The notes under the pieces were generated by a model. The model saw nothing but the letters and a program-made list of their open reading frames with translations. It had not been told where the DNA came from and did no database searches. Positions 34,916-61,381 of a stretch of 64,000 bases of DNA are shown piece after piece; position 1 is the first letter of the stretch; the number at the start of each line of letters is the position of its first letter. This DNA comes from a virus. The stretch covers positions 1 through 64,000 of the IMG/VR virus record IMGVR_UViG_3300027749_000049. One strand, 5' to 3'. The position numbers were made by a program, and so were the translations under genes.

Positions 34916-37342
34916 ATGAAATATGTAATTTCAGCAGATCAATACTTTAGTCAAGGCGCTAACCCAGTTAATGAAAAACTTGTTCAATACTTTGAGAGTA
35001 TTCCTGAAGCTTTTTGGACTGCATTAGACGCAGTTGACTTTAGCAAATTAAGTAAACCTAGAACTCCTAATCATTCAGAAAAAGAAATCTTTGAACATCA
35101 AGTTTTTTTACTTGACAATATTGAAGATATTAATAATATTATCCAAAAAGAGGACTTTTTGGTTAGACAAGGATATGATACCGTTAAGCTTAGACTTAAT
35201 GAATCCTATCTACCGACAGTTCAATTAATTAACGAAGGTGTAATGAGTTCAGTTATGAACTTTGTAAAAGCCCTAGTTGCCGATCCGGATCCATTTGAAA
35301 TGGGTCTAAATATCCTAAGATTAGTACTAGACGTAATTGGAATTGTTCCTTTTACTTGGGCTGGATTTCCAATTGATATAGTTGCAAATGTTCTATCGGC
35401 AATAATTTCTCTATATAAAGGCGAATATATTTCAATGATGCTTAGTGTAATTGCGGCAATTGATGTTTCTAAAACTTCAAATTTCTTAAAAACTATTAAA
35501 TGGTTACCTAAACCTGCACTAAAACTACTTGAAAAACTAGCAAAGATTCTATGTAGGGCTGGAAGTTCAGCAACTGAAATTGGGCCAGCTGTTCTTGCAC
35601 TAAAGAATGGAATTAGAACCCTAGGCGATAAAAGCATTTCGGGAATAATTGTCTCTTTATTTAAAGGAGTTGCTAGCTTTTTTAGTACAATTGCAGTTGG
35701 CATAGTTAAATTTGTTACTAATTTTATAAAAACTGTTTTTAATTTAGTTCCAATTGTTGGAAAATACGGAGTAAAGGCAGTCCAAGCATTTGAAAGACTT
35801 GGCCTTGAAGCTCAACTTGCTCTATTTGGGCGTAATTTCTCAACTGCTGCTACCTTATTAGGGGAAGAGGGTACTAAAAAGGAAATTGCAAAAGGCGTTG
35901 ATAAATTAGGAGATACTGTAGTTTCTGCACCAAAGCTTGGAGCAGATGGAAAACCTTTAATTGGAGCAGATGGACTGCCAGTAAAAGGCAAAGAATATGC
36001 AGCAACCAGTCCACAAGGAAGAGCAATACTTAATTCAAAAGCATATAAAGATTTTGATGCAGCGGTAATTACAGCCTATGCAAAAGAAGGAGGGTATGCA
36101 GCTGACTTGCTAAAAGCAGTTAAGTCAGATACTAAGTTTATGGCCTCGATTGCAGGTCAACCTGAGGCTATACAGAAGGTTGCAATAGCTGCAAAGGTTG
36201 AAAATGAATTAATTGGAGCATCAGTTGATGCAATTGATCAAATTGTTAAAAAGGATCCAACGTTAGCTGACTATTTTGCAGTTAAGTATAGATGGAAGCC
36301 AAGTGGAGAATATATTACTCAACTTGCAAAAGATGGCAAAGTTGATGATATTGGCAAAGTTTTTAAAACAATGTTAACTGACCCAGCGGTTGCTAAAAAT
36401 TTATCAAAGGCTGAAGTTAGGGCATTTACGCCATGGGCAACCAAACCTGAAATTTTTATTCAAGGTGTTAAAAACTTTGATGATACGGTTTATGTATTAG
36501 CTAAATTAACCAAAGCCGGCGGAGCTCTTGCAACTAGAGCAGTATTTCTAAAGAGGCTACTTAATTTTATTTCTAGACTTGTTTGGCAACGCTATGGAAG
36601 TTTGGATTGTATTAAACAAATGGCAACCGCTAAGACTAATGGTTTAATTGGAAAAGCATTAACCCCTGCATTAAATGAAGAAGACGTTTTGACTGGAGAT
36701 GCTACTGTTGATGCAAATAATGCAACCGCAAATGCAGCCAATGCTGCTCAAGCTAATATTACTAATCCTGACACCAACCCGCCAGTTAAGTCAGCTGAGG
36801 TAGAAGAAGTTATTAATAAAAATGACGAGACCATTGAAAAAGCAAAAGCAAATGGTGGCAAAACCAATTGTAACTTAATGAGTAACGTTGTTAAAACCGC
36901 GGTTGGCGCTCATTGTGCAAATTTCCCAGGATCAACTGCTCTACTTGGAGGTCAATCCGATATGTCTGATCCAAAAGTAGCAGCTGAGTTTCAAAGGAAG
37001 AGTACTGAATATACTAAACAAATTTTAAAGTCAATGGGATTAGATGATTCAATTGATGCTCAGCATGCACTAAATGCTCAATCTCTTGAAGATAAGGCAG
37101 CCTTGGCCGATGTATGGGATTATGAAAATGGTATAGTTAGTTTAAATACAGAAGATACATCAAGAGTACATATTACTTTGCAAAAATGGGTTAAGGACGG
37201 TTACTGTACTCAAGAAGAGGCAGATGCTGCTGAACAGAAGGCAATTGAACGAATAAAAAATGCAAATCCACCTGAATTAAAACTTCCAGATAATTCAGCT
37301 AATGAAGGTTTATTTAGGACTAAAACCTTTAATTTTGCATAA
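34916..37342 (+). CDS. Large putative virion-internal (ejection) protein with pre-toxin-TG-like hydrophobic segment
   Basis: ATAAATA at 34885; several xNE sites; LDVIGIVP...IDIVANVLSAIISLYKGEY segment. Confidence 0.55.
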   Translation: MKYVISADQYFSQGANPVNEKLVQYFESIPEAFWTALDAVDFSKLSKPRTPNHSEKEIFEHQVFLLDNIEDINNIIQKEDFLVRQGYDTVKLRLNESYLPTVQLINEGVMSSVMNFVKALVADPDPFEMGLNILRLVLDVIGIVPFTWAGFPIDIVANVLSAIISLYKGEYISMMLSVIAAIDVSKTSNFLKTIKWLPKPALKLLEKLAKILCRAGSSATEIGPAVLALKNGIRTLGDKSISGIIVSLFKGVASFFSTIAVGIVKFVTNFIKTVFNLVPIVGKYGVKAVQAFERLGLEAQLALFGRNFSTAATLLGEEGTKKEIAKGVDKLGDTVVSAPKLGADGKPLIGADGLPVKGKEYAATSPQGRAILNSKAYKDFDAAVITAYAKEGGYAADLLKAVKSDTKFMASIAGQPEAIQKVAIAAKVENELIGASVDAIDQIVKKDPTLADYFAVKYRWKPSGEYITQLAKDGKVDDIGKVFKTMLTDPAVAKNLSKAEVRAFTPWATKPEIFIQGVKNFDDTVYVLAKLTKAGGALATRAVFLKRLLNFISRLVWQRYGSLDCIKQMATAKTNGLIGKALTPALNEEDVLTGDATVDANNATANAANAAQANITNPDTNPPVKSAEVEEVINKNDETIEKAKANGGKTNCNLMSNVVKTAVGAHCANFPGSTALLGGQSDMSDPKVAAEFQRKSTEYTKQILKSMGLDDSIDAQHALNAQSLEDKAALADVWDYENGIVSLNTEDTSRVHITLQKWVKDGYCTQEEADAAEQKAIERIKNANPPELKLPDNSANEGLFRTKTFNFA

Positions 37343-37369
37343 TAAATAACTAAAAATAAGTAAAAACAA

Positions 37370-38425
37370 ATGACCCTTATTAAAACATTTGACGAATTTA
37401 AAAAACCGCCAGTAATTGATGAAGCTCGAAGAGTTGAAAAGATTTCAGCAGCTAACGCACAAAAAGGCGAATTAAAAAGATGGAACGTAGTAATACGTAG
37501 TGGAGAAGAAGATACTGCTGATTTATCTAATCCATATACTACAATATTACGAGAACTTTCCCAAGACAGTGATTTTAAAAATTGGATTAACGGGTCTAGT
37601 CCAGTGAAAGATCCAGTTCAAGGCACTGATGTAACTATTTCAAATCGTAATTTATTAGCGGTTATTAATTTAGGCGTTCAAAATAAAACCAATTTAATTG
37701 GGCAAAAGGTTTTTAAAGGACAAGTTGCATTTTTGCCTTATGCAACAGCTCAACTTCGTACAGGCTTGACCACAGGTATGTGGGTTACATATGATGTTAC
37801 AAAAGTTCCACACAGAGGTGAGGTTGTTGATAGTTCAAATGTTAAATTGGTTGCTTGGGATGAACAGGATTTGCCTAAGTTAAAAGTTATTGATAATAAG
37901 GATAAAGGCATCTTTAACAACAGAATAGAGGCAATATATAAAAAGGATGGATCAAATATACCAGAATATTTAGTTTCGCCAGCATATGTTGAAGAAAATG
38001 GAGCACCAGACGGAATTTATAAGGCTGCTCCAAATGCTGCTGCAGGTGGAGGCGTAACTACCACAACTACAACGGCTGCTCCTGGTACAACTGGTGTTAC
38101 TGCTACCACTATTAAAACTGGTCTAAAATCAAATAACTTATTTAGCCAAGATGTTAAAGATTTACAAAACAAAATTCTGGCTAATGGTGGAGATGCCGCT
38201 GCTAAAATTAAGGCAGTAGGCGGAGCTGATGGTAAATATGGAAATGCAACAGCTACGGCGATTGGAATTCTAACCGGTAAGCCGGCTGTTCCAGTTATTG
38301 ATATTACTCAAGACATTGCAGATAAATTAAATACTATACTAAAGGACGTAAAGGTTGAAGCACCGGTAGTGAAGCCTGATACAACTAAGAAAAAAAAGCA
38401 GGCAAGTGCTGACCCTGGATTTTAA
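37370..38425 (+). CDS. Putative virion-internal protein with C-terminal peptidoglycan-binding domain
   Basis: N-terminal IKTFDEF tag; VKDLQNKI...ADGKYGNATATAI PG-binding motif. Confidence 0.6.
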   Translation: MTLIKTFDEFKKPPVIDEARRVEKISAANAQKGELKRWNVVIRSGEEDTADLSNPYTTILRELSQDSDFKNWINGSSPVKDPVQGTDVTISNRNLLAVINLGVQNKTNLIGQKVFKGQVAFLPYATAQLRTGLTTGMWVTYDVTKVPHRGEVVDSSNVKLVAWDEQDLPKLKVIDNKDKGIFNNRIEAIYKKDGSNIPEYLVSPAYVEENGAPDGIYKAAPNAAAGGGVTTTTTTAAPGTTGVTATTIKTGLKSNNLFSQDVKDLQNKILANGGDAAAKIKAVGGADGKYGNATATAIGILTGKPAVPVIDITQDIADKLNTILKDVKVEAPVVKPDTTKKKKQASADPGF

Positions 38426-38446
38426 TAAAAAATAAAAAACAAAGAT

Positions 38447-39115
38447 ATGATTGACTTAAGAAATTATGCACTACTTGCTGAACAGAAAAAATTTGGCTAT
38501 TTTAATAAACTAAATGAATCAGGTCCAGATCAACAATCGGACGCCGGCCTTAAAGCTGTATTAAGCGGAAAAACTGATGCAAAGTACCTAAATCAATGGG
38601 AGCAATTAGTTGCTGATTTTAATAAAAACGTACAGACTCCTGGTCTACACACTGTAATTATTAATCACGATGATGGGAAAACGCAGATGGTATCAATTGA
38701 CTATCAAATTGGAACAGATAAAAAGCCAATAAAAGGCAGCGTAGTACTTACTCCAGCGGTTAAGACCTTAGCACCTACTGGGACAGTTACTAATCCTATC
38801 AACTATACTGACGTACAATTACAAGCTGACGTTGACACGTTAGTTGATGAGTTAGATGGTATTGTTAATATTAAAAATTTGCAAACCATTAAAACTATGT
38901 TAACAAAATATATAGGCCATTTTGGTCTTGGCGATGATGATACTACCAAAGTTTCAGCAATTGGCCGTATTTTAACATTGTATAAAAGAGATGAGAGTGG
39001 CGATACTCTACCTGGAGATATTGCAGACGTTGGTACTTCCACGTTAGCTCCTGAGGCTGAAAAATTAAAAAGCCAGCTTGCAACTCTACTTAAACCTTAT
39101 AAAGAGGAAGCTTAA
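38447..39115 (+). CDS. Hypothetical (putative virion-internal) protein
   Basis: 222-aa ORF with N-terminal LAE and LNE sites. Confidence 0.55.
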   Translation: MIDLRNYALLAEQKKFGYFNKLNESGPDQQSDAGLKAVLSGKTDAKYLNQWEQLVADFNKNVQTPGLHTVIINHDDGKTQMVSIDYQIGTDKKPIKGSVVLTPAVKTLAPTGTVTNPINYTDVQLQADVDTLVDELDGIVNIKNLQTIKTMLTKYIGHFGLGDDDTTKVSAIGRILTLYKRDESGDTLPGDIADVGTSTLAPEAEKLKSQLATLLKPYKEEA

Positions 39116-39116
39116 T

Positions 39117-39302
39117 ATGCTAATAATAAACGTAAAGGACAATGGAACTTTAGACAGGGCTCTTAAAGTTTTAAAACGCAAATTTGAAAAAACTGGTACA
39201 GTAAAGCAGTTACGTTCCCGAAAGGAATTTATAAAACCAAGTATAAAACGTCGAGAAGAGATTCGTAATGCACAGTACCGCCAATCTCTAAACAATGATT
39301 AA
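39117..39302 (+). CDS. rpsU: Ribosomal protein bS21 (phage-encoded)
   Basis: MLIINVKDNGTLDRALKVLKRKFEKTGTVKQLRSRKEFIKPS...Y matches Bacteroidota bS21; ATG at 39117. Confidence 0.93.
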   Translation: MLIINVKDNGTLDRALKVLKRKFEKTGTVKQLRSRKEFIKPSIKRREEIRNAQYRQSLNND

Positions 39303-39762
39303 AACATTTTCTAATTTCTTGGCAGAAACAAAGAAATATTCAGATGGAGCTGGTGTAGCTATTCTTTATCAAAAAAAGATTCTACTAGTTCATCCAACTA
39401 ATGGTAGCTGGACCAAACCAATTATGGGAATTCCAAAAGGCAAAATTGAAGTTGGAGAAGACCTAATGGAGGCAGCGCTTAGGGAACTTCGCGAAGAAAC
39501 TGGAATTAGGCTCTCACCCGATAAATTAGAACCAGGGGTTGAAACTGTTCAAGTTTTTGATAAGGACGGCAACTATAAAAGCTCACTTCATTATTTTATT
39601 TGTAGAATCTCAAACCTTTCCGAAATTGGCCTAGACGGATTGGCTATTCCAAAGAATCAATTACAGCCAGAAGAAATTGACTGGGCTGGCTTTATCAATA
39701 TTAAAGATGCCTATTCAAAGGTATCCAGAGCACAATTAATAATTTTAGATAGAATTTCCTAA
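39295..39762 (+). CDS. Nudix hydrolase with N-terminal capsid-targeting-like tag
   Basis: Nudix box GKIEVGEDLMEAALRELREETG; N-terminus MIKTFSNFLAE. Confidence 0.9.
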   Translation: MIKTFSNFLAETKKYSDGAGVAILYQKKILLVHPTNGSWTKPIMGIPKGKIEVGEDLMEAALRELREETGIRLSPDKLEPGVETVQVFDKDGNYKSSLHYFICRISNLSEIGLDGLAIPKNQLQPEEIDWAGFINIKDAYSKVSRAQLIILDRIS

Positions 39763-39813
39763 AACTCCTTCACCATTTTTAGTAAAATAGCTAAACAACA
39801 AATTTTATATAAA

Positions 39814-40374
39814 ATGGAAAATCAACAAGACCTAATTACTGACGAACTAGTAATTGACGAAGCTACAGTAGCTATCGAAGAACCTCAAACTGAAATGGCA
39901 CCAGACATGGAAATGGAAGAGCCAACCCAAGAACCTCAAGCTGAAATGTCAGAGTTAGACATGTTAATCAACAAACGAACTGGATTTTTCCAAGTTAATT
40001 TGGACATTAAAGATCTAAAATGGATTAAAAATTCATGTAATGATGGTAAATTTGGATTCACAGGCCCAAATGAAGCCTTTATGATTATGAATTGTTTCAT
40101 GGGATTCTCTTCTGCTATTGCACGTCTTGAGCAAGAAGAAAAAGCGGCTGAATCAGCTGGAGTTCAAATTCAAGCTTCTGCTGTTGAAGCTGCAGCAATC
40201 CTTATTAATAAATTCGAAGGTTCAAGTTTAGAATCAGCACAACGAATTTTTAGAATTGCAATTGCTCTTAACAATCCAGTAATGGAAATGAAGCAACTTG
40301 ACCAAATCATTAACCAAATTAAATTGGAAAGTGCAAAGCAGGACGAACTTGCTAATCAGGAATCTCAAGCTTAA
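39814..40374 (+). CDS. Hypothetical acidic protein
   Basis: 186-aa ORF followed by a terminator. Confidence 0.65.
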   Translation: MENQQDLITDELVIDEATVAIEEPQTEMAPDMEMEEPTQEPQAEMSELDMLINKRTGFFQVNLDIKDLKWIKNSCNDGKFGFTGPNEAFMIMNCFMGFSSAIARLEQEEKAAESAGVQIQASAVEAAAILINKFEGSSLESAQRIFRIAIALNNPVMEMKQLDQIINQIKLESAKQDELANQESQA

Positions 40375-40391
40375 TTTTTAAATTTTTATTT

Positions 40392-40416
40392 AAAAGCCGC
40401 GTCAGCGGCTTTTTTT
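40392..40416 (+). terminator. Rho-independent terminator
   Basis: AAAAGCCGC-gtca-GCGGCTTTT followed by a T run. Confidence 0.85.
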
Positions 40417-40434
40417 GTTTAGTATAATAGCCAT

Positions 40435-46408: not shown

Positions 46409-46481
46409 AATGTATAAAAATTATTTTAAGTTATTTATTTAGCCAAATTTTAGATTTTTTGAAAACCTTTTTTGCTAACCA

Positions 46482-46520
46482 TGATATAATAAATAGACTT
46501 TACAATAATCGTTCTTTAAT
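46482..46520 (+). promoter_or_regulatory. Promoter (TGnTATAAT overlapping ATAAATA) and boxA-like element upstream of the ncRNA
   Basis: TGATATAAT at 46482-46490, ATAAATA at 46489-46495 and CGTTCTTTAA at 46510-46519. Confidence 0.6.
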
Positions 46521-46523
46521 TTA

Positions 46524-46925
46524 CGTTGGAAAAACCTGATAGGAAGTCATGAGCCTTTCAGGAGTATGTGCCAGAACAACCTGATTGTAAAACAGGTAAT
46601 GGTTTAGATTAGGAGGATGCTCCGCAAGTATTGGCTGAACGGTCAACTTGAACCAGTTAACCGCTGGAGTCTAAGGTTTTGATATCCATATATGGTATTT
46701 TGCAATCGGCATACGGGTATAAAATAGTCCCGTTAAATGGCTGAATAATCCTTTGCTAGGTGGGATAAAGCACTCGTACTGTTGTGGTTAACACGATAGT
46801 GATTCAAGCGGATCCAACTTGCTTTGAGTCGACTCTGACAGGAGTGTACGAAGGTTGTCGTTATAACGCAAGCTCAGCATCAAATTGGAGGTAAACCCTA
46901 CCCCTCTCATACGTTTTTTCCGACG
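46524..46925 (+). ncRNA. Unassigned ~400-nt highly structured non-coding RNA
   Basis: No ORF of 60 aa or more and higher GC than the flanks. The ends pair (CGTTGGAAAAA/TTTTTCCGACG), with many internal helices whose G.U pairs fit the + strand. Flanked by a promoter and a terminator. Confidence 0.75.
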
Positions 46926-46930
46926 ATACC

Positions 46931-46963
46931 AAGGCTAGCCGTAAAAAAGCTAGCCTTTTTTTT
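46931..46963 (+). terminator. Rho-independent terminator
   Basis: AAGGCTAGC-loop-GCTAGCCTT followed by a T run. Confidence 0.85.
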
Positions 46964-46988
46964 GTTTACAGAGTATAATAATATTATT

Positions 46989-47774: not shown

Positions 47775-48341
47775 TTATCGAGTAGTTTTACGAGGTCTTA
47801 AAGATTGAGGCTTTTTACCAGTTTCAAGATTTGAATCTTTTGCGGAAACCGTTAACACTCCATTATCTGGAATATTATTGGTCTTTGCAAATATCTTTTT
47901 CTTATTCATAGACTCTTCAGTTTTCTGTGCAGATTTTAAAGCGCCTGGAGCTGGATAACCTTTTTCTCCTGGCTTTGCAGGTTTTTCTCCACGCTTTCTT
48001 TTTGCATTAATATTATCCCATAAACCTTTTTTCTTTTCGGAAATTTCTAGGCTTGCTAATAGTGCATCAGACTCGTCTGCAAAACTTTGAGCAATATCTT
48101 CTCCAAATTCGTCATAAATTTTTGTAATAAGATCATTTTGTAAATCTTTAATTCGGCTTGCCGTTTCATACTTATTGGAGTGTTGATCAATTTCAACTGG
48201 CTCATTTGTATAGTTACTAGCTAATTCAATTAGATCTTTTGAAATATTATGGTAAAAAGAATCCGATTTTGTATTTGGTGCTTGGTGGAATTCATCGTAA
48301 CTCTCTTCAAAGCTTTCAAATAGTGCAATGTAATTTTTCAT
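47775..48341 (-). CDS. Putative head-internal protein
   Basis: N-terminal YIALFESFEE tag; basic GLWDNINAKRKRG...PG..GYP motif; GATAAATA upstream. Confidence 0.6.
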   Translation of the reverse strand: MKNYIALFESFEESYDEFHQAPNTKSDSFYHNISKDLIELASNYTNEPVEIDQHSNKYETASRIKDLQNDLITKIYDEFGEDIAQSFADESDALLASLEISEKKKGLWDNINAKRKRGEKPAKPGEKGYPAPGALKSAQKTEESMNKKKIFAKTNNIPDNGVLTVSAKDSNLETGKKPQSLRPRKTTR

Positions 48342-48377
48342 TTGTTTTTGGTATAATTTTATAAACTTATTTATCTA

Positions 48378-49155: not shown

Positions 49156-49452
49156 ATGAAAAAACTATTATTAATTATAATGTTAATATTAACATTAACC
49201 ACATTTTCGCAGAATTATACAGATTCGGTTTCTTGTAGACAAACAATAAGTATGTATAAGAGAATAGAATCTAAACTACAATCTAGCATAACTGCCCAGG
49301 GTAATACGTTAAAAACAAAAAATTTAGAAATAGGTTTATTAAATGAGACTATTATTAAAAACAATAAACGGATTAAAAAGCAAAAGATATACAAATGGTT
49401 GTCAATTTTAGGTAATGTTGGGCTAGTTTGGTATATTATAAAAACCAATTAA
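49156..49452 (+). CDS. Hypothetical exported/membrane protein
   Basis: Signal peptide, coiled coil and C-terminal TM helix. Confidence 0.6.
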   Translation: MKKLLLIIMLILTLTTFSQNYTDSVSCRQTISMYKRIESKLQSSITAQGNTLKTKNLEIGLLNETIIKNNKRIKKQKIYKWLSILGNVGLVWYIIKTN

Positions 49453-51951: not shown

Positions 51952-52154
51952 AGAAAGTATTAAGAATTGAACCGTATTGTTATAAAACATGGTCACCAGC
52001 CTTTAAGCAAATTGGCTTAATTTCCCCGTATATTACATATAATCCAGAAGGTCACTTTGTTGAACCTGGAGTTAGCTCTTGGCTATTAATAGTAAGCTTT
52101 AATATACTAATTTGGGATTTTGGATTCAGGATCTATTATGATCTTGAGTATTAA
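51948..52154 (+). CDS. Hypothetical protein
   Basis: 68-aa ORF with ATGA overlap. Confidence 0.5.
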   Translation: MKKVLRIEPYCYKTWSPAFKQIGLISPYITYNPEGHFVEPGVSSWLLIVSFNILIWDFGFRIYYDLEY

Positions 52155-53536
52155 GCAGTTGCAGTTGAGTCTAATGAACTAGCAAAAGCTTTTGCTTTTT
52201 GAAAACCAACCGAAACAACTGCTCCATCTAATGAAGTTCCCCAACCTGCATTTGACCTAATATAGTCAGTAACTGCTGAATCTAAATCTGAATAGTTATT
52301 TGGATCTTTACCGTGTCTTTTAAATGAATCAATAAAATATAGGATTGCAAATTCTGCCGCAACCTCAGGTTTTTCAAGAAGTTCAGGATTTTTAACAATG
52401 TCAATACTACCTAAAGCCTGATTTGTCTTATTATAAATCTTTTGTAGATTTTCGTAATTTCCTTTGAAAGTTATTCCGTTAAAACCTCGGCCTCTGTATT
52501 TTTCTCCATCTCCTGGTGCAGTATTACCGTACATTCCACCATATACTGCTTCCCAAAATTTATGGTCAAATTCAGTTTTACCTAATTGTTTCCAACCTTC
52601 AATTTCTTGATCTGAGTATTTTGTAATTCTGGCTCCAAATACTTCTTTCATTCTTGCAAGTGATGTACTAAAATAGGAAGTTTCGCTACCGCCCTTTGAA
52701 GACTCTTTTGAAATTACACCTAAAATTGCTTTACGTGCAAATTCATTAGTTATTCCATTTTTATCCATTGACTGTTCTAATGCAATCATATTTTCTTTTG
52801 GAAAACCTCCTCCAGCTTTAAAATTAGTGCCTTTACCTGCAATTAATGAAGTTGAATATTTGTCTAAATCAGCTTGAGAAAAATTCTTTTCTTTTAATTT
52901 TGCAATAAGTCGCTTAATTAGATCTGAATCAATTGTAGCAACTTTTTGATTACCGCCAGCCATTGGGCTAGCTTTGTCAACTGTTGTTTCTTTATCAAAT
53001 ACGGATAAGTCAATTGGATCGTCAAAATGATCCATTACATATTGTTTAATGGTTGCACCCTCAGTTGCAGCCTTATGGCCTGGATTAACTTCGCCATGGC
53101 CAAATATTTGATTCTTAGTATAACCAAGATGTTTAATAATCTTTAATACTGCAATTCCTTGTTCAGGCATTTGTATATCAGCATCATTCTTTGCAATAAC
53201 TTCAACCCCTTGGGCATTTGAATTTGAAATTCCTGGAGGTGCTCCACGATAACCGTCAGATGCTCCAACATGAGCGCCTCTTGAATTTGAAGGAAGTGTT
53301 TTATAAATTGTACCGTCTCTATCAACCACCCACTGTACGCCTAATTTACCTCTAGAATTTAAAACGCCAACAACGCCAGATGCAGTTCCACGACCAGCGG
53401 TATGGTGAATTATGAAAAAATTATTTGATGCAAGAGGTTCTCCTTTTCTAGCATATTGTGACTCAGCTGAAATATCAATAATTTCGTCAGCTGCTTCATT
53501 AATTATTTTAGTAAATTGGTTAAACGTTTTAAGCAT
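52151..53536 (-). CDS. Two-domain peptidoglycan hydrolase: Amidase_2 + GH19-like
   Basis: IIHHTAG...GAHVG...GVEV...GHGEV amidase motifs; YGGMYGN...GDGEKYRGRGFNGIT GH19 motif; N-terminal LKTFNQF..IINE tag. Confidence 0.85.
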   Translation of the reverse strand: MLKTFNQFTKIINEAADEIIDISAESQYARKGEPLASNNFFIIHHTAGRGTASGVVGVLNSRGKLGVQWVVDRDGTIYKTLPSNSRGAHVGASDGYRGAPPGISNSNAQGVEVIAKNDADIQMPEQGIAVLKIIKHLGYTKNQIFGHGEVNPGHKAATEGATIKQYVMDHFDDPIDLSVFDKETTVDKASPMAGGNQKVATIDSDLIKRLIAKLKEKNFSQADLDKYSTSLIAGKGTNFKAGGGFPKENMIALEQSMDKNGITNEFARKAILGVISKESSKGGSETSYFSTSLARMKEVFGARITKYSDQEIEGWKQLGKTEFDHKFWEAVYGGMYGNTAPGDGEKYRGRGFNGITFKGNYENLQKIYNKTNQALGSIDIVKNPELLEKPEVAAEFAILYFIDSFKRHGKDPNNYSDLDSAVTDYIRSNAGWGTSLDGAVVSVGFQKAKAFASSLDSTATA

Positions 53537-53537
53537 A

Positions 53538-53906
53538 TTAAATATGTTCTATTTTAGGTAGAGTTTCTAAATTAAATTTATCAATAGCAGCAGCCGTTTC
53601 TGGGCCAAAATATCCATCTACTCCGTATTTTTCAAGTTTATATCCTAAAAATTCTAATGCAAGTTGAATATTTTCAACCATTTTAGAATATTCAAACTTG
53701 CCTGAAAGTTGAGTATTAACTGATTTATTTGAATTTGCAAAGTCTTCAAGGGTTTTATAAAAGTCGGCAACTTTTGCATCAAGTACACCTTGGTTTTCAG
53801 TATTTCCTTGAGTTTTAGTATCGCCTTTTTCACTCTTACCGGTTAGCCAGTCCCAAAAACCATCTTCATTGATGGTTGAATTAAATTCGGTAAATGTTTT
53901 AATCAT
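53538..53906 (-). CDS. Peptidoglycan-binding domain protein
   Basis: VENIQLALEFLGY...GVDGYFGPETAAAI; N-terminal IKTFTEF..INE tag. Confidence 0.8.
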   Translation of the reverse strand: MIKTFTEFNSTINEDGFWDWLTGKSEKGDTKTQGNTENQGVLDAKVADFYKTLEDFANSNKSVNTQLSGKFEYSKMVENIQLALEFLGYKLEKYGVDGYFGPETAAAIDKFNLETLPKIEHI

Positions 53907-53956
53907 GTTAAACTTTAAATATTTATTGTGTACTATATTGTAAAGTTATTTATCTA

Positions 53957-54709
53957 ATGCCTGAATCAATTAAAAGAGTTGTGCTGAATGGATTTCGATA
54001 CTATCAAGTATCTGATTCAACTGGAATATTGGGAACTTTCCCAAGTGTAACTTCTGTGCTTGGAGATACCTCTGATAAATCTGGGCTTGATGCTTGGAGA
54101 AACCGGATAGGTCATCAAAAAGCTGATCAAATAGGTCAAGATGCAGCTAACCGTGGAACGGTAATGCACAGACTATGCGAAATTTATCTTAATTTGCCAC
54201 AGTCAATGTCTGCTAAGGACAGACTTGAGGACACCCTGGCCTTGGCCAGAATAGATGATGAGATTGATCAATTTGATAATCGGGCAAAAATTGTAGGCGG
54301 CATGCTCTTCTATAATTTTATAAAATCAAATTCATTTGACGAAATTAAACGGGTAATTGCTCAAGAGCGATTCCTATGGACCGCAAGAGACGGTGGATTT
54401 GCTGGTACTGTAGATAATGTTTCTGAATTAATAACCGGTGACCATGCAATTGTAGATTTTAAAACTGCTCGTAAACCCAAGGAAGAAAAATGGATTGAAG
54501 ACTATAAAAATCAAGTTGCAGCATATTCAGTTGCGGTTTGGGACCGCATGCAGGTTAAAACAGTTACTTGCAGAATTTGGATTTCAAATGAAGTAAACTT
54601 AGCGCCACAACATTTTAGAATGGACTCTAGCGAAATGCGAGAATACTATTTTAAATTCAGAGAAAGATTAGCAGAATTCTATAAGAAGAATCCGCCAATT
54701 GTACTTTAG
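53957..54709 (+). CDS. PD-(D/E)XK (Cas4-like) exonuclease
   Basis: PSVTSVL, RGTVMH, AGTVD, IVDFKT and QVAAY motifs. Confidence 0.88.
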   Translation: MPESIKRVVLNGFRYYQVSDSTGILGTFPSVTSVLGDTSDKSGLDAWRNRIGHQKADQIGQDAANRGTVMHRLCEIYLNLPQSMSAKDRLEDTLALARIDDEIDQFDNRAKIVGGMLFYNFIKSNSFDEIKRVIAQERFLWTARDGGFAGTVDNVSELITGDHAIVDFKTARKPKEEKWIEDYKNQVAAYSVAVWDRMQVKTVTCRIWISNEVNLAPQHFRMDSSEMREYYFKFRERLAEFYKKNPPIVL

Positions 54710-56670
54710 GCAATCTCAGTTCGGTCAGTTATCTTTCTTAAAAGATCCAATCTAACTGGAGTAGGTCTTTCAGCTCCACCAAATGTTCGTAAGTAAATAA
54801 ACGGCTGATTTGCAGTATTTCTGGTTGTATAATCGCATTTAGATAAAATACCCCAATTGTTTTGGTGATTTGCAATATAATAATGATCTCCAGCTCTGGC
54901 CATTAATTTATCCTGTTCTGTAACTGGTTCAAGACTTAGGGCAACTAATCCCATTCCAACAAATGGACCTTCAACTGTTTTACCGGTAACTACATTAATC
55001 AAGCTAATATTACGCGGATTACTGATTAATTCCTGTGGACTTTCAACTGACCGTGTTGCTCTACCTATTTTTTCAACTGCTACAAATACTGGAACGCCAG
55101 CGGCTCCTCTAAGGGTTGCTTGTTGAGGTTCTGCTAGAACTACAAATTTTGCAAAATTACCAGTTCTGATTTTCTTAAGCAGGTCAAGATTATCCAAAGT
55201 TTGGCGATTATTAACAGCCTGTTTTAATTCAGCTCCAGTAAAATCAAGTTTACCAAATAGGGCTTTATCTGCAGTTCTGGCCAAGTTTTGAGAACGATCT
55301 CTTTCAATACGTTCTCTTTCTGCTTGAGCTTCAGCATCTCGACGTTGTTGAACTACTTCAGGACGTAATCTATTACTAATAAATGTTTTACCAGCTGGGG
55401 TTAGGTTAACTCTATCTAAGTCCGGAATACTTTCAATATTTACTTTAACCCAGGTTGATTTATCATCAGTTGTTCGAGTATCACTTGCATTTCCTGGTGT
55501 AATCTCTCCAGCCTCAATTCGGATAGCATCATTAATATTTACAGCAATATAAGTCCCGTTACGTACATCAACCACATACCTAATTGGTAAGCTACCATAA
55601 CTTGCATCATACAGATAGCTTTTAACTACAATAAAGTCGCCAACTTGCCATTCTGCATCTGGCTCTGCGCCAAATTGTGTAATACGAGAAGCAAGACGTT
55701 GTCGAGTTTCAGCCTCTTCACGAGTTCTACGCTCTCTATCTGCAATTGCTTGGCGTTCTGCTCTTTCTCTGTCAAGGCGCTGTACTTCTGATCTAGCTGC
55801 ATTAATTGAGGTTAATCTCTCATTTGGTACACGGCCGTCTCGGCCTAATGAAGCCAAATAAGCATCATCTAATTTTGTTAAAAATGTATCAGGTAAAATT
55901 GAAAGAAGCTCATCATCAATATCAAATCTGTCGGGTTTTGTGTTATTAAAACCAATTTGGCGTTCAATAAATCTTTCAGCTACATCAATTTTTGATTGAG
56001 TGCTTATACCTTTATCCATTGCCATCCAACTACCTGGACCAATTATGGCTAAGGCATCATCGACTGATGGTGTTCCATCTGGATTTGCTTTATAGTCTAA
56101 TAATGATCCCCAAGCTTTGTCCTTTTCAGGAGTTCCACTTGAGTTTGATGAAATATAACCCGCATATTTTAATAGTGTTCTGTACAATTTATAACCTAAT
56201 CCTGTACCCCTAAGCGCAGGTCTAATTCCATCATTTGGGAAATGGCTTCGTTGAAATGAGCTTGGCTCTTCAGTTCTAAGATAAATTGAAGTACCTGATG
56301 GATAAACATCTCTCCATTTACCAAAATCATCTTTCATTCTACCTTCATCAATCTGCTTGAGTTCTTTAAGTAAATCAACAATTGGTTGTGGAAATCTTGG
56401 ATAGTAGTCTCTTGTATTACTAGGCTTTTCCATTGTAATCTCAAGTCTAGTAACCTGCTTTAGTGCACGAGTTAACTCAGCAGCAACTTCTGCGTAACTT
56501 CTACGAACTGGCTGATTTGCAAGCTGCTGTCTACGAGTAACGGTTTCCTGTCTAGCTCTACCAATATGACTGCCCGCTAATCGTTCAGGGCGTTTAACTC
56601 CCATTTCATCAACTAGCCCACCCTGATTAATATTTGATTCATTAATTGTTTCTATAAAAGACTTTGCCAT
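54706..56670 (-). CDS. Large putative virion-internal protein with GNAT-like motif
   Basis: N-terminal KSFIETINE; IRPALRGTGLGYKLY resembles GNAT motif A; TATTTAT at 56696. Confidence 0.55.
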   Translation of the reverse strand: MAKSFIETINESNINQGGLVDEMGVKRPERLAGSHIGRARQETVTRRQQLANQPVRRSYAEVAAELTRALKQVTRLEITMEKPSNTRDYYPRFPQPIVDLLKELKQIDEGRMKDDFGKWRDVYPSGTSIYLRTEEPSSFQRSHFPNDGIRPALRGTGLGYKLYRTLLKYAGYISSNSSGTPEKDKAWGSLLDYKANPDGTPSVDDALAIIGPGSWMAMDKGISTQSKIDVAERFIERQIGFNNTKPDRFDIDDELLSILPDTFLTKLDDAYLASLGRDGRVPNERLTSINAARSEVQRLDRERAERQAIADRERRTREEAETRQRLASRITQFGAEPDAEWQVGDFIVVKSYLYDASYGSLPIRYVVDVRNGTYIAVNINDAIRIEAGEITPGNASDTRTTDDKSTWVKVNIESIPDLDRVNLTPAGKTFISNRLRPEVVQQRRDAEAQAERERIERDRSQNLARTADKALFGKLDFTGAELKQAVNNRQTLDNLDLLKKIRTGNFAKFVVLAEPQQATLRGAAGVPVFVAVEKIGRATRSVESPQELISNPRNISLINVVTGKTVEGPFVGMGLVALSLEPVTEQDKLMARAGDHYYIANHQNNWGILSKCDYTTRNTANQPFIYLRTFGGAERPTPVRLDLLRKITDRTEIA

Positions 56671-56753
56671 AATTATATAAAAAATACTTTTTAGTTATTT
56701 ATTCTTGAATCCGGTTAGATAACCATAGTAGAATACTTAAAAAGATTTGGATC

Positions 56754-57476
56754 ATGCAAAAACTCACATTTACTAAATACTCTATCCTAGTTTCATTTTG
56801 GGATGAAACTTCTGAAAAATGGATCGACCGAAATATTGCTGATACGAGCTTACCTATTACTTGGTATTTACCATATGAAGTTCATATAGAAAAAAATGTT
56901 ACCTTAAGAGACATTATTAATATGTTAACTCCATATTCTGAGCAATTAAATTTTGTATTTCTTGCATATCTTAATGGCGTGCAAGTTGAAGACCTATTTA
57001 TAGAATTGTTAAGTCGACCGGCTGAGCCGCATAATCTTAAAATAGATGCAATTTGTCTATTGTGGATGGGTAAAGTAAAACCTTTACCTGATATAGATGA
57101 TCCAAAAATATACACATTTTCAGCCCTACTAGCTCTAGAAATTATTGATGAAGAAGATGATGGATCAGAGGACGAACTCCATAGCATTTATGATATAACA
57201 GTTGATCAATTATTAGATACGTCAATTGTGATCGATGATTTCCTAGAATATTATGATGATGATAAACATGATGATGCACTATTTAGTGGAATAACTGATT
57301 GGCAATTTTTTGATTTTATCCGAACAATATTAAGCGAATTGGTTCTTTATAGTTTTACAACTGATATAATTAAAAAATCTGAATTAGATACTGCCCCAAT
57401 TGGAGCAGCTGAATTATTTGAACATCTTGATAAATTAGATAAATTTTTTAAAGATGAACCAACTGATTTAGGTTAG
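56754..57476 (+). CDS. Hypothetical acidic protein
   Basis: 240-aa ORF. Confidence 0.65.
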   Translation: MQKLTFTKYSILVSFWDETSEKWIDRNIADTSLPITWYLPYEVHIEKNVTLRDIINMLTPYSEQLNFVFLAYLNGVQVEDLFIELLSRPAEPHNLKIDAICLLWMGKVKPLPDIDDPKIYTFSALLALEIIDEEDDGSEDELHSIYDITVDQLLDTSIVIDDFLEYYDDDKHDDALFSGITDWQFFDFIRTILSELVLYSFTTDIIKKSELDTAPIGAAELFEHLDKLDKFFKDEPTDLG

Positions 57477-57533
57477 TGGTAATATAATATGCAATCGAAA
57501 GTATCTAAGCTTTTGTGGTATATTATATTAAGT

Positions 57534-58541
57534 ATGAGATCAAAGAAAATAAAAACTTTTTATACGCCAAAACAGGTTTTAGAAAATGACAAGACTTCTA
57601 ATTATAGTAAGTCTCCATTAAAACCTAAACTTCTGTTGGCATATTTAAAACAGAAAAAACTTCTCGGCAATTTTTCAATAACTGATGACTTTAAACCATT
57701 TACTAAAACTGATTTTAGAATGGCTCATCATAAAAGTTACGTGGACGATTTTTTTAATGGGACCGGTCTGTGCTGTTCAAATTCATTAGCGTGGTCAAAA
57801 CAGTTTGCTGACTCAATTAGATATACAAATTCATCACTATATGCAGCAATTCGAAATTCAATAGTTAATCCAAAACAGGTTAGTTTCAGTCCAACTAGCG
57901 GATTTCACCATGCTAGACCAAGTGGAGGTAGCGGTTTCTGTACATTTAGTGGTCAAGTAATTGCATCACTTAAAATCTATAATGAATTTGGATTAAGTGG
58001 GGCCTATTTAGATTTAGATGGCCATTTTGGAAATTCAATTGAAGACAGTCGTGCATTTTGTAAAAACTTAAATAAAGCAGTTCCATTAGATTTTAATATT
58101 AATCCAGAAGGATATGACTCTGACTATTTAGCCGATCTTGCAAAATGGTTAGAGCGATTAAAATATGCTATTCTAAATAATAAAATTCATTATGTGGTTT
58201 GGTGTCACGGAGCAGATTCTCACGCAGATGATAATTTAGGCAGACAATGTGATACTGATCATTGGTCTGCATGCTCAACTCTTTTTTGGAAATGGGTAAA
58301 AGGCATGGATAAAATATTAGGTCGGCCATTGCCAGTTTCATGTGCACTGTTTGGCGGATATCGAGATGATGACTATAATTCAGTACTAAGTTTACACACC
58401 AACGATTTTGTTAAGTGCTTTAAAGAATTACTTGAGGTCGACGTTAAATATACTATAGAGGTACTGCCTCGTCAAAAAATTGGATATGGTGATGGTACGA
58501 GACTACGTAGAAAACGAAGAAGCCTGGATCAAAAAGTATAA
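57534..58541 (+). CDS. Histone deacetylase (HDAC)-family Zn-dependent deacylase
   Basis: SGFHHA, SGFCTF, DLDGHFGN, GADSH..D and GGY motifs; alternative start at 57489. Confidence 0.88.
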   Translation: MRSKKIKTFYTPKQVLENDKTSNYSKSPLKPKLLLAYLKQKKLLGNFSITDDFKPFTKTDFRMAHHKSYVDDFFNGTGLCCSNSLAWSKQFADSIRYTNSSLYAAIRNSIVNPKQVSFSPTSGFHHARPSGGSGFCTFSGQVIASLKIYNEFGLSGAYLDLDGHFGNSIEDSRAFCKNLNKAVPLDFNINPEGYDSDYLADLAKWLERLKYAILNNKIHYVVWCHGADSHADDNLGRQCDTDHWSACSTLFWKWVKGMDKILGRPLPVSCALFGGYRDDDYNSVLSLHTNDFVKCFKELLEVDVKYTIEVLPRQKIGYGDGTRLRRKRRSLDQKV

Positions 58542-58695
58542 AGATATTGACAGTAAAGGAGTTACCTCAACCTATTGGAAGGAGGTTCTTGAAGTAATTG
58601 GATATTTAGAATATAAAGAAAATTATGAAAGTTGCCAAGAGCTTTGGGACTATTATAAGGAAATAACAAATGGTAAACAGGACGATACTGACTAA
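58486..58695 (+). CDS. Hypothetical protein with UVR-like motif
   Basis: YLEYKENYESCQEL, similar to 20705..21016. Confidence 0.55.
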   Translation: MVMVRDYVENEEAWIKKYKDIDSKGVTSTYWKEVLEVIGYLEYKENYESCQELWDYYKEITNGKQDDTD

Positions 58696-58697
58696 AC

Positions 58698-58727
58698 AAA
58701 AATAGCCCTAATATTAGGGCTATTTTT
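58698..58727. terminator. Bidirectional terminator (perfect 30-bp palindrome)
   Basis: AAAAATAGCCCTAATATTAGGGCTATTTTT between convergent genes. Confidence 0.8.
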
Positions 58728-58744
58728 ATTAGATTCGTTTTTAA

Positions 58745-59062
58745 TTATGAATTAAGTTGTTCTGGCAAAGTTGATTCAGCTGGTGCCTCTACTAAATCTG
58801 TTGCTGCTGGTTTTTTACCATTCATAACATTTTTAACACCAAGTAGAGTTGCTCCAATTAAGGTAAAGGTTATTGCTTGAGTAATAACATCAATTGATTT
58901 ACTAATCCATAACTTGTCAATACATCCTAATAAGAAGCATAAGCCCCCAATAAAGATAATATAGAGACCAGCAACTGAAGTACCTGAAGTTTTACCATTA
59001 TCGTTTGAGGTCATTTCACCAAATGAAAAACGTTTAACATCTCCGATTTTAGAAATTTTCAT
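58745..59062 (-). CDS. Two-TM membrane protein (holin-like candidate)
   Basis: NGKTSGTS followed by two TM helices. Confidence 0.55.
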   Translation of the reverse strand: MKISKIGDVKRFSFGEMTSNDNGKTSGTSVAGLYIIFIGGLCFLLGCIDKLWISKSIDVITQAITFTLIGATLLGVKNVMNGKKPAATDLVEAPAESTLPEQLNS

Positions 59063-59079
59063 TGTATTTTATATTTTTT

Positions 59080-59883
59080 TTAGTTGACGTAGTTATTAAG
59101 AACTGTTTCAAGATCGTCAGTCTTTTCAAGAGTAGATGAAGGCTCGCCATAATATAATTCATAACGATCTTCTAAAAGATCAGCTGCATCCACTGCATTT
59201 TTTAGTTTAAGTAGTCTAATACCAAACCAGTCAGCTTCCATTTCTTGGCGTTCATCATATTGATTTGCTCGATCGTATTTAGACGCTGAGTGATCTAATT
59301 CAAAATGTGCAATTTCATGAGCCTCAATTGCAAGTATGTGATCACTTGTTAAGTTTTGACTCTCAATTATTACTCCGTCAATATAGATTGTTTTTGAAGA
59401 AAGATCTGCAAATGCAATTCCTAAATAGTTAAAGATCTTTGCAAAATCTTTATATAGAGAATCCTCTGGCCACAAGGCAATAACTGTCCAGTCTGGATCA
59501 AGTTTACTTTTCCAAGCAGTAGGTTCTGCCGATTCTGATAAATTATAACGCTTCATCTTTGAAGCACGTTGACCAGTTAAGTCTCTCCATAACTCGCGTA
59601 CATCAGGTTGAGCTAAAGTATCCGCCTGTACCATTGAATAAAATTGATTATCTGAGTTCTGCATCATTGCGAACCATTCTTCTAGCGTTGGTTTCTTAGG
59701 TAGTGCGGCTATTCTAGTCTTTAACCGACGGAACATTGGAAACAGTTCAGTTTCATATTTGTCACCGGTATGAGGGTTTCTGCCGAATTTACGATTAATA
59801 CCAAGATCGCCTAATTGCTTAAGAGGTCTTGGATGCTCAATATTTTCAGATACCCATGTATTAAAGTTTACAATCGTTGCCAT
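59080..59883 (-). CDS. Zn metallopeptidase-like protein (HExxH)
   Basis: AHEIAH with downstream EMEAD; N-terminal IVNFNTWVSE tag; GATAAATA upstream. Confidence 0.7.
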   Translation of the reverse strand: MATIVNFNTWVSENIEHPRPLKQLGDLGINRKFGRNPHTGDKYETELFPMFRRLKTRIAALPKKPTLEEWFAMMQNSDNQFYSMVQADTLAQPDVRELWRDLTGQRASKMKRYNLSESAEPTAWKSKLDPDWTVIALWPEDSLYKDFAKIFNYLGIAFADLSSKTIYIDGVIIESQNLTSDHILAIEAHEIAHFELDHSASKYDRANQYDERQEMEADWFGIRLLKLKNAVDAADLLEDRYELYYGEPSSTLEKTDDLETVLNNYVN

Positions 59884-59890
59884 TCTGTTT

Positions 59891-59915
59891 TATTTATCCC
59901 TAGCGTAGATAAATA
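59891..59915. promoter_or_regulatory. Back-to-back divergent GATAAATA late-promoter motifs
   Basis: TATTTATC at 59891-59898 and GATAAATA at 59908-59915 between divergent genes. Confidence 0.6.
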
Positions 59916-59933
59916 ATAAGAAAATCAATAGTA

Positions 59934-60380
59934 ATGATTCATAAATATCAACAATGGATTGAAGAATCTGAAAAAGTTGAAGCAAACGAACAGGTGCCAA
60001 CGGATACTCCAGAAGTACCGGCAACAATGGATGCAGCAGCTTTACCAGCTACCACCGAAACTCCAGCAGCAACTACTCCAGAACTTCCATCTGAACCAGA
60101 AATCGTATCAGCCGAGTCTGAAATTGAAGAATACCAAACTTTAGACAAAGCTCGTAGAGACGCGATTAAAGCATTTAAAGAAAAACAAGGCGAATTTTTG
60201 GAAATTCCAGCAGACATTCGTAAAAACCCAGTTGAAGAAGCTGATAAAACAAAAGTTGAAGAATTAAAGACCTCTTTAATTGAGCTTAATAAAACCATGA
60301 AAGCTGCAATTACTGCCTGGAATAAATTTAATTCAATGGCTCTTGGTATCGAAGATGAAGAAGACCAAGTTGAACCATAA
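59934..60380 (+). CDS. Acidic putative head-internal protein
   Basis: MIHKYQQWIEE N-terminus; Pro/Glu-rich region and coiled coil. Confidence 0.6.
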   Translation: MIHKYQQWIEESEKVEANEQVPTDTPEVPATMDAAALPATTETPAATTPELPSEPEIVSAESEIEEYQTLDKARRDAIKAFKEKQGEFLEIPADIRKNPVEEADKTKVEELKTSLIELNKTMKAAITAWNKFNSMALGIEDEEDQVEP

Positions 60381-60395
60381 AATAACTAACTTACA

Positions 60396-60593
60396 ATGTC
60401 AATTATAAAAAATTTTAAAGATTTTCTTAACGAAAGCTGGCATCCATATGATGCATACGAAACTGGCGAATCAAATTGTTGTGGTGCACCAATCATGCAA
60501 GGCGGAATTTGCTCAGACTGTAAAGAGCATTGTGAAGCTGAAGAAGAGGACTTTGAACCAGGTAATGATTTACCTAATGTTGAAGGATTTTAA
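60396..60593 (+). CDS. Small Zn-finger-like protein with capsid-targeting-like tag
   Basis: MSIIKNFKDFLNE; SNCCGA...CSDCKEHC. Confidence 0.65.
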   Translation: MSIIKNFKDFLNESWHPYDAYETGESNCCGAPIMQGGICSDCKEHCEAEEEDFEPGNDLPNVEGF

Positions 60594-61381
60594 TGCAGTA
60601 CCTATTAGAATATAGCGATTGGACAAACGCACGAGAACACGAACTCAATGAAGATTGGGGATGGGATGATTTAGCTCATCTTGGAGTTGATGTGATTAGC
60701 GCAGTTGCTGATTCATGGGTTCCAGGTTCAGGCAGTATAATTGACGTAATTCATGCAATTTCCTATACGCTGCAAGCAAAAGTTGCAAATACTGAAGCTG
60801 AAAAGGTTTCTTTAAATATGCAAGGCTTAATAACACTAGCATCCGTTGCTGCAATTAGCGGAGCTCAAGCTTTGGCGGTTGCACTAAAGGCTCAAATTAA
60901 AATAGTAATGACAGCTTTTACTGAAGGCCTTTCTAACCCAACTGCTTTTAAATTAGCAAAGTCTGTTGCCCCAGACGTGTCAGCTAAAATTAAAGTTTTG
61001 CTTGGAATGGTTGAAGCTATTGGAAAATGGGTTGGTCAAAAAATTAAATCATTTAAAAATTCAGAATTAGGCGAATGGGTTATTGGTAAATTTGGATCAA
61101 TTGATATTGCAATTACTAAATTAGGAGAAATAATAACCAAAAGTATTCCAGCCTCAATTAATAAATTTTTACAATTTCTAGCAAAGCTTAATCCATTAAA
61201 ACTGGGAGCACACGGAGCAGCTGGTGAAACTGGTGAACTTTTACTTAAAACCGCTGCTAAACACTATGTAGCATCAAAGGCAACAAATACTACAATTGCA
61301 GCAATTACAAATACAACAAGTCAAACTAACAAAGAGATTGCGGCTTTAACTAAGAAACCTCAAACCAAACCTGGAGCATAA
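60593..61381 (+). CDS. Putative virion-internal protein with pre-toxin-TG-like hydrophobic segment
   Basis: LNE followed by HLGVDVISAVAD..VPGSGSIIDVIHAISY. Confidence 0.55.
   Translation: MQYLLEYSDWTNAREHELNEDWGWDDLAHLGVDVISAVADSWVPGSGSIIDVIHAISYTLQAKVANTEAEKVSLNMQGLITLASVAAISGAQALAVALKAQIKIVMTAFTEGLSNPTAFKLAKSVAPDVSAKIKVLLGMVEAIGKWVGQKIKSFKNSELGEWVIGKFGSIDIAITKLGEIITKSIPASINKFLQFLAKLNPLKLGAHGAAGETGELLLKTAAKHYVASKATNTTIAAITNTTSQTNKEIAALTKKPQTKPGA

Follow-up and report, generated by a model that had tools for sequence, protein, structure and literature searches.

A candidate T4-type capsid targeting sequence shared by many unrelated proteins of an uncultured jumbo phage

About one in eight genes on an uncultured phage contig encode the same short N-terminal tag, which we read as a capsid targeting sequence (CTS) of the T4 type, with a probability of roughly 0.8. 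The stretch analysed, called the window below, is the 64,000 nucleotides at positions 1 to 64,000 of IMG/VR record IMGVR_UViG_3300027749_000049, and is the opening half of one contig of 128,004 bp, whose GC content is 0.36. The tag has the consensus M-x(0-6)-K-x-[FY]-x-x-[FW]-[ILV]-x-E, ends mostly in [ILV]-N-E, and can be recognized by eye on some 27 genes of the contig, counting 16 further ones in its second half (one of them GTG-started). A preliminary description of the window had proposed both the tag, on 11 genes, and its capsid-targeting role. The family is real and larger than that description stated, and each computational test able to speak against the proposed role came out in favour of it. 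We base the reading on the strict N-terminal enrichment of the motif, on the singling out of T4 internal proteins by a matrix made from this phage, on the head machinery of related phages, on a late-like motif upstream of the genes, and on cargo that is otherwise unrelated. The mechanism would be of a known kind, the T4-type CTS, rather than a new one, with a greatly expanded scale and a cargo that is partly enzymatic.

The shared N-terminus

Genes were called from the first ATG of the longest non-overlapping open reading frames (ORFs), a crude procedure that gave 195 genes on the contig. N-termini were scored with an ungapped position weight matrix (PWM) of 11 columns, leaving out the scored sequence each time (leave-one-out); ORF 46989, although positive by regular expression, was not used as a PWM seed because it matched poorly. 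With a threshold of 10 bits the PWM accepts 16 of the 195 N-termini and none of 32,004 internal positions. A permissive regular expression accepts 22 of the 195, against a mean of 3.07 and a maximum of 9 in 1000 shuffles of residues 2-32, and it accepts 6 of 479 internal Met positions. Scanning every ATG-started ORF of at least 30 aa on both strands yields 26 matches of at least 8 bits, comprising 23 called tagged genes, one second ATG of the same gene and two tiny ORFs. By regular expression and PWM alike the motif is strictly N-terminal and far above chance, the outcome on which the preliminary description, by its comparison with shuffled N-termini, had made its claim depend. In accordance with the earlier claim, the tag is absent from the ligase, UvsE, ThyA and both exonucleases. 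The tagged genes that lie in the window or reach into it are listed here with their PWM scores and with the promoter-like motif ATAAATA where it was noted upstream.

37370-38425 (+): tagged gene, 351 aa, no Pfam family; tag MTLIKTFDEFKKPPVIDE, 18 aa (37370-37423); 2.5 bits, positive by regular expression; ATAAATA at 37342-37348
39295-39762 (+): tagged Nudix hydrolase, 155 aa; tag MIKTFSNFLAE (39295-39327), Nudix domain from residue 17 (Pfam NUDIX, 1.6e-13); 23.6 bits
47775-48341 (-): tagged gene, 188 aa; tag MKNYIALFESFEE; 5.9 bits; ATAAATA at 48368-48374
52151-53536 (-): tagged two-domain peptidoglycan hydrolase, 461 aa; tag MLKTFNQFTKIINE; Amidase_2 at residues 39-150 (Pfam, 1.3e-8); 15.2 bits
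53538-53906 (-): tagged peptidoglycan-binding protein, 122 aa; tag MIKTFTEFNSTINE; PG_binding_1 (4.1e-6); 16.4 bits; ATAAATA at 53920-53926 and 53947-53953
54706-56670 (-): tagged gene, 654 aa, no Pfam family; tag MAKSFIETINE; 11.1 bits; ATAAATA at 56696-56702
59080-59883 (-): tagged HExxH protein, 267 aa, HEIAH at residue 189; tag MATIVNFNTWVSE; 5.7 bits; ATAAATA at 59891-59897
59934-60380 (+): tagged acidic protein, 148 aa; tag MIHKYQQWIEE; 13.8 bits; ATAAATA at 59909-59915
60396-60593 (+): tagged Cys-rich protein, 65 aa; tag MSIIKNFKDFLNE; 22.4 bits
60593-61381 (+): weakly tagged gene, 262 aa; N-terminus MQYLLEYSDWTNAREHELNE; 3.4 bits, positive by regular expression
62807-64000 (-): C-terminal part of a tagged 588-aa gene that starts with MKNQIIKSYTNWLLE at genome position 64573, past the window end; 20.9 bits

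All 11 N-termini quoted in the preliminary description are present in the sequence at the starts and on the strands given for them. Support for the tag differs among them: six reach at least 10 bits (the genes starting at 39295, 60396, 53906, 53536, 59934 and 56670), and four score lower (48341, 59883, 60593 and 37370), mainly because the ungapped matrix penalizes longer spacers. The remaining one, 38447, had been called weak from the outset and finds no support at -0.7 bits. Measured to its [hydrophobic]-x-E end, the predicted tag is 10-18 residues long in 23 of 26 proteins; among these 23, Asn stands before the Glu in 11, and Ala, Ser or Asn after it in 17.

The Nudix protein allowed a check that does not depend on the motif. 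Its 181 homologues at E <=1e-5 were found through the Nudix domain rather than the tag, and among the 120 of them listed, 100 carry a tag of at least 10 bits, 12 a weak one and 8 none, the last group including entries that are shorter at the N-terminus. We aligned 83 of these 120, dropping near-duplicates and those whose N-termini differed in length, some of these entries being truncated or mis-started. The tag columns read F in 81 of the 83 rows, F or Y in 82, L/I/V/M in 75 and E in 71, while the residues between and behind these four columns vary freely. Judged by this column conservation, purifying selection acts on precisely those four positions that have a function in T4. In an AlphaFold2 model of the protein (mean predicted local distance difference test, pLDDT, 88.7) residues 1-13 fall below 50, with a short helix at 5-10, which places the tag outside the fold. 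The modelled fold is nearest to RppH and Ap4A hydrolases, a resemblance that does not settle the substrate.

The association of ATAAATA with tagged genes, also put forward in the preliminary description, is borne out by the counts: 17 of the 26 tagged genes have the motif in the 60 nt preceding them, compared with 21 of the 169 untagged ones (Fisher p = 2.6e-8). Its distance from the tagged genes is 12-37 nt, and the untagged genes that have it include baseplate wedge, fibre-like and endolysin-like genes. Most of the nine tagged genes without ATAAATA in the upstream 60 nt stand, by gene order, directly behind another late or tagged gene, a position that is less clear for 65782 and 39295. By its likeness to the T4 late promoter, which we take to be TATAAATA, we infer that ATAAATA is a late promoter. 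Two copies facing apart at 59891-59915, between the tagged genes 59080 (-) and 59934 (+), look like a divergent late-promoter pair.

Comparison with T4, control genomes and relatives

The PWM, built only from this phage, was run on the T4 record (NC_000866), in which 4 of 268 ORFs reach 8 bits: gp61.1 (21.0), ipIII (19.5), ipII (19.5) and ipI (17.2), with the next best ORF at 7.5. The record annotates ipI, ipII and ipIII as internal virion proteins. In a review of T4 head assembly (PMC9026906), targeting by the T4 CTS is ascribed mainly to residues 4 and 7 and processing to residues 8 and 10, positions assigned by mutagenesis, and T4 propeptides are given as 10-19 residues long. In the consensus found here, these targeting and processing positions correspond to the pair of aromatics, to the hydrophobic residue behind them and to the final Glu. 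The highest scoring T4 ORF, gp61.1 (18966-19130, minus strand), is a hypothetical protein of 54 aa that starts MKTFKEFIKE, and because it scores above all three known internal proteins it may be a fourth CTS-bearing T4 protein.

The likeness to the T4 CTS, which is carried by IPI, IPII, IPIII and Alt and removed by gp21, extends to several features: an N-terminal propeptide of about the T4 length; a pair of aromatics spaced by three and, behind them, a hydrophobic residue, a free position and Glu; diverse cargo with only the tag in common; a late-promoter-like motif before many of the genes; and a gp21-family protease with a gp23-family capsid protein in the lineage. The differences are that some 27 tags occur on half a genome, and at least 27 among 343 proteins in a 253-kb relative, compared with the four PWM matches in T4; that Asn is preferred before the Glu; that the cargo includes recognizable enzymes (Nudix, amidase plus glycosidase, 2H phosphoesterase, nucleotidyltransferase-like); that several proteins have a further short motif behind the tag; and that the present system is known from sequence alone.

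Other delivery systems are less similar. According to PMC5694885, many head proteins of phiKZ, 201phi2-1 and SPN3US are cleaved behind a Glu by a protease distantly homologous to gp21, and the propeptides on these head and ejection proteins are thought to target them into the prohead. The same source describes these propeptides as mostly longer than 100 residues, without a common sequence and with A/S/G at P3, whereas the tags here have 10-18 residues, a common consensus and I/L/V at P3, and do not show the giant-phage form. Accounts of T7, P22 and P1 Dar tell of proteins that are loaded into the head and passed on together with the DNA, some of them acting on the cell wall or against host defences. 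These internal and ejection proteins are alike in their delivery and unrelated in their families, a comparison made by description only. To our knowledge no cleavable common N-terminal tag occurs in T7, P22 or P1 Dar. Nor does the tag resemble, by eye, a Sec or lipoprotein signal peptide, in which an unbroken hydrophobic core follows a positively charged start; the tag has polar residues between its aromatics and an Asn-Glu end; signal-like starts are seen on other window ORFs (49156, 61537 and 62259).

As controls we took two phages of Flavobacteriia. The PWM finds no N-terminus of at least 12 bits among 319 in Tenacibaculum phage PTm1 (GC 0.30) and none of at least 8 bits among 195 in Flavobacterium phage MaF61. 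Two adjoining PTm1 genes (139854-142505, plus strand) start MKLFETINE and MKELIKHIQE; at only 4.4 bits, they may carry that phage's own diverged version of the tag.

The contig, listed in the collection as a linear virus record with an estimated completeness of 46%, is by its sequence relationships a fragment of a T4-superfamily jumbo phage, because its large terminase (TerL) is T4-like and related viral contigs reach 253 kb. TerL is a distant member of the T4 family, with Sphingomonas phage PAU and Tenacibaculum phages as its best named matches (32-33% identity) and uncultured phages of ~635 kb also among its matches. Window genes further include a baseplate wedge, a tail-tube-like gene and a sigma factor. 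A search of the phage collection for near-identical DNA gave no match.

A search of five related records placed Peptidase_S77, the family of the gp21-type protease, above the cut-off in three, among them both records of 90% completeness or more; the carriers are G001 (94% complete), G002 (93%) and G003 (84%). In G001 (253,137 bp, TerL 77% identical) the protease (Pfam, 33 bits) occupies one open frame with a repeat-rich scaffold (phrog_207, 1.1e-35), and a Gp23-family capsid protein (2.5e-42) adjoins this protease-scaffold gene. The capsid proteins of G001, G002 and G003 have [LI]-N-E at residues 51-53, followed by S or A, with differing residues thereafter, and the phrog_138 major-head-protein match of the G001 capsid protein begins at residue 54. 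The G001 scaffold has five [ILV]NE in 425 aa, the highest among 343 proteins, where 0.54 would be expected (P = 2.5e-4, for one pre-chosen protein). From these sequences, the tag end, the scaffold and the boundary of the capsid propeptide appear to have one short motif in common; T4 shows the same, its gp21 cutting tagged proteins, capsid protein and scaffold alike (PMC5694885). In the closer relatives G006-G008 (TerL 97-98% identical), which are 16-33% complete, no capsid gene was found.

Three observations concern the neighbourhood of the protease. The G001 frame (64465-66453, minus strand; L085:1-1989) holds protease and scaffold with no ATG before the protease domain, which implies either a non-ATG start or a scaffold made as a nested product from an internal ATG. 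The G003 counterpart of the frame starts MLFIIERVNE, itself tag-like. Directly beside the G001 gene (L085:2014-2928, minus strand) lies a J-domain protein, DnaJ-like and with an HPD motif.

G001 also provides homologues for 16 of the 26 tagged proteins, of which 13 score at least 10 bits and 2 are more weakly tagged. Its homologue of the 654-aa protein, for instance, is 53% identical and tagged too. In several of these pairs the same cargo domain adjoins the tag in one genome and is separated from it by an extra domain in the other, which is what a portable label predicts: residues 100-144 of the 188-aa protein at 47775-48341 match the region of a G001 protein directly behind that protein's own tag. 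Compared in this way, the pairs show that the tag-plus-cargo architecture is modular.

The tag extends to other phages. At 10 bits or more the PWM accepts 27 of 343 N-termini and 9 of 65,984 internal positions in G001, and 47 of 967 N-termini and 16 of 162,330 internal positions in the uncultured phage LR745206 (634,780 bp); with 11 anchor positions per protein, these internal rates predict at most about one false positive per genome. Both genomes also have a shorter tag variant, MKYLKxFE. In LR745206 a large tag sub-family starts MK[YH][LI]Kx[FY]xxFE, and many tagged genes (loci L131-L162) are preceded by TTAATATATA instead of ATAAATA. A Pfam survey covered 71 of the 74 PWM matches of the two genomes, three being left out for crossing a locus boundary or for lacking an ATG start, and returned 22 families, none of them in more than one protein; SMODS-associated Nudix, the poly(A) polymerase head domain, VanY, phage lysozyme, CHAP, RNase T, DHH and MazE-like are among them. 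A tblastn search with two cargo proteins against 50,697 phage records matched only uncultured huge phages and no cultured relative with the cargo genes.

Weighing the capsid-targeting reading

If the tag works as in T4, the sequence of events would be the following. Late in infection the phage would make, counting this contig alone, some 27 or more proteins, each bearing the 10-18-residue tag that is seen in the sequence. The two aromatics would dock each protein on the prohead scaffolding core, a gp21-type Peptidase_S77 protease would cut after the Glu of [ILV]-x-E and free the mature cargo inside the head, and the cargo would exit with the DNA at the next infection. Host takeover or anti-defence, the purpose suggested in the preliminary description, would be in line with T4 precedents and with the domain content of the cargo. 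In T4, IPI* blocks GmrSD, and IPIII is needed on some hosts.

Several points weigh against this reading. Core binding, cleavage, packaging, ejection and cargo action in the host are drawn by analogy; the late-promoter role of ATAAATA likewise leans on a likeness. Searches of the contig found no S77 protease, no Gp23-type capsid protein and no T4-type portal, a result made uninformative by the 46% completeness of the record, and the head machinery is seen only in relatives whose TerL is 69-78% identical. The enrichment of [ILV]NE in the G001 scaffold becomes weak after correction for 343 proteins (0.086), and the tripeptide [hydrophobic]-x-E is common anyway, at 1.9 per 100 aa. The Glu is missing from some tags, as in the G001 Nudix orthologue with its MIDTFDNFTKPKK, and among the G001 homologues of tagged proteins one has no tag as called. 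PTm1 encodes an S77 protease but has no canonical tags, which means that the protease does not imply the tag. Finally, dozens of cargo species per head would far exceed the known load of T4.

The tag might instead be a real N-terminal signal with a different destination, sorting or assembling late proteins into another part of the virion, sending them to a membrane site or marking them for regulated degradation. The present evidence is silent on where the proteins go, several of the cargoes are peptidoglycan hydrolases, which are tail-located in many phages, and the tag is predicted to form a short, amphipathic-looking helix. We nevertheless consider such a destination unlikely, because the PWM picks the three internal head proteins of T4 out of 268 ORFs, because the conserved positions are those that T4 uses for targeting and processing, and because the tag end matches the capsid propeptide boundary and the scaffold motif of the relatives; the tag also lacks the hydrophobic core of the signal peptides at 49156, 61537 and 62259.

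Less probable still is conservation at the level of DNA or mRNA, with a functionless peptide that is carried along in a promoter-plus-start cassette spread by recombination or that reflects A/T-rich early codons aiding translation. The AT-rich genome, the dominance of AAA, TTT and GAA among the tag codons and the conserved promoter-like motif upstream would all fit. Yet the substitutions preserve residue chemistry and not bases (F/Y/W as TTT/TAT/TGG, I/L/V in six codons, AAC and AAT five times each), and Nudix homologues down to ~50% identity keep the four tag columns as they keep catalytic-domain columns, while neighbouring residues drift. The AT-rich controls PTm1 and MaF61 have no such N-termini, and the nine tagged genes without an upstream ATAAATA have retained the tag without an adjoining promoter-like motif. 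That the motif is a product of chance or of start-codon choice would draw on the crudeness of the gene calls, but was tested and rejected: the shuffles, the internal positions, the scan of all ATGs (23 of 26 matches being called tagged genes) and the control genomes reduce its probability to almost nothing.

Capsid targeting is thus the reading we retain, and a broader proposal, to which we give slightly less than even odds, can be built upon it. T4-superfamily jumbo and huge phages, with likely Bacteroidota hosts, might possess a programmable protein-injection system in which a label of 10-18 residues, recognizable in the sequence by itself, is placed on 30 to ~50 or more cargoes per genome. 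Such a set would be the phage counterpart of the effector repertoire of a secretion system, pre-loaded to act before phage gene expression, and the second motif, NLxRLxxLG[IL], would be a docking or processing module at which multi-domain cargo is cut. The tagged share of genes here is 8-13%, and the recognizable cargo domains include cell-wall hydrolases, Nudix, 2H/Acb1-like and DHH phosphoesterases, a poly(A)-polymerase-type nucleotidyltransferase, an RNase T-type exonuclease and a MazE-like antitoxin.

If the tag does work as in T4, a simple sequence rule would predict which proteins uncultured jumbo and huge phages inject. Such proteins are at work ahead of phage gene expression, which makes them prime candidates for counter-defence and takeover; since most of the tagged proteins have no assigned function, the set would be a focused list in which to find such activities. 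The tag is near enough to that of T4 to be tried directly in the T4 packaging system. We see the interest of the system in its scale, in the handle it offers on injected proteins of uncultured large phages and in its unexplained second motif. The literature search found no published description of such a tag expansion, although supplementary tables may hold relevant entries, and the main text of a paper on a similar freshwater jumbo-phage lineage contains neither 'N-terminal' nor 'internal protein'.

Cargo, second motif and neighbouring features

Leaving aside the first 25 residues, only 2 of the 325 pairings of tagged proteins show similarity, so that the cargo is almost all unrelated; this holds with the caveat that a short NLxRLxxLGI motif is common to seven tagged proteins. 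Pfam assigned no family at E <=0.01 to 19 of the 26 tagged proteins. Three functional labels of the preliminary description, Nudix at 39295, peptidoglycan-binding at 53906 and amidase at 53536, agree with the Pfam matches listed above, and the C-terminal 269 aa of the amidase-bearing lysin match the PDB endolysins 7r6s (1.1e-7) and 4ok7 (1.3e-5). The HExxH label at 59883 stands as far as the motif itself is concerned; the matches of this protein to peptidase families M78 (0.0019) and M48 (0.0059) are both under the Pfam cut-offs. The label 'GNAT-like' for the 654-aa protein was dropped, as Pfam gave no match and the Atlas leads, at 0.77-0.78, are below noise. Three further genes belong with the tagged set or its surroundings.

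34916-37342 (+): untagged or degenerate, an 808-aa late gene heading the cluster, no Pfam family; N-terminus ends PVNE at residue 20; -2.4 bits; ATAAATA upstream
96012, beyond the window: tagged, nucleotidyltransferase-like, a weak Pfam assignment
101830, beyond the window: tagged, 2H-phosphoesterase/Acb1-like, with two H-x-T motifs and Pfam matches below the cut-off

A PDB sequence search with the 2H-like protein gave no match.

The second short motif, N-[LFY]-x-R-L-x-x-L-G-[IL]-[ATV]-[DE], was seen beyond the window (L001:2639-5276, L002:4346-8693 and L003:12345-12902). With a loose regular expression, 9 of 12 matches on the genome fall in the seven tagged proteins and a tenth in the GTG-start tagged gene, and 15 copies were counted in G001. 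The motif stands either a few residues behind the tag or before internal domains, sometimes twice in one protein, and often ends in a cleavage-like I-A-E, with unrelated sequences behind it. As a known domain it was not recognized: Pfam searches at E <=10 with five small carriers gave only noise. A homologue search with a 151-aa carrier returned one protein. The window gene at 59080-59883 (LKQLGDLGI) perhaps has the motif as well.

Some minor features of the contig were recorded in passing. Short GC-rich islands occur at genome positions 67.3-67.8 kb and 82.4-83.0 kb, and the Pro/Arg/Gly-rich ORF calls there are probably spurious. An ORF-poor gap between convergent and divergent genes occupies 46409-46988 of the window, where the listed ORFs have 40-41 aa. 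The window opens with a very long collagen-like protein of Gly-X-Y repeats (GSS/GTS/GSN) at 1-4029, open at the window start and with a globular C-terminal part, and this is followed at 5054-11987 by large glycosyltransferase- and methyltransferase-like ORFs.

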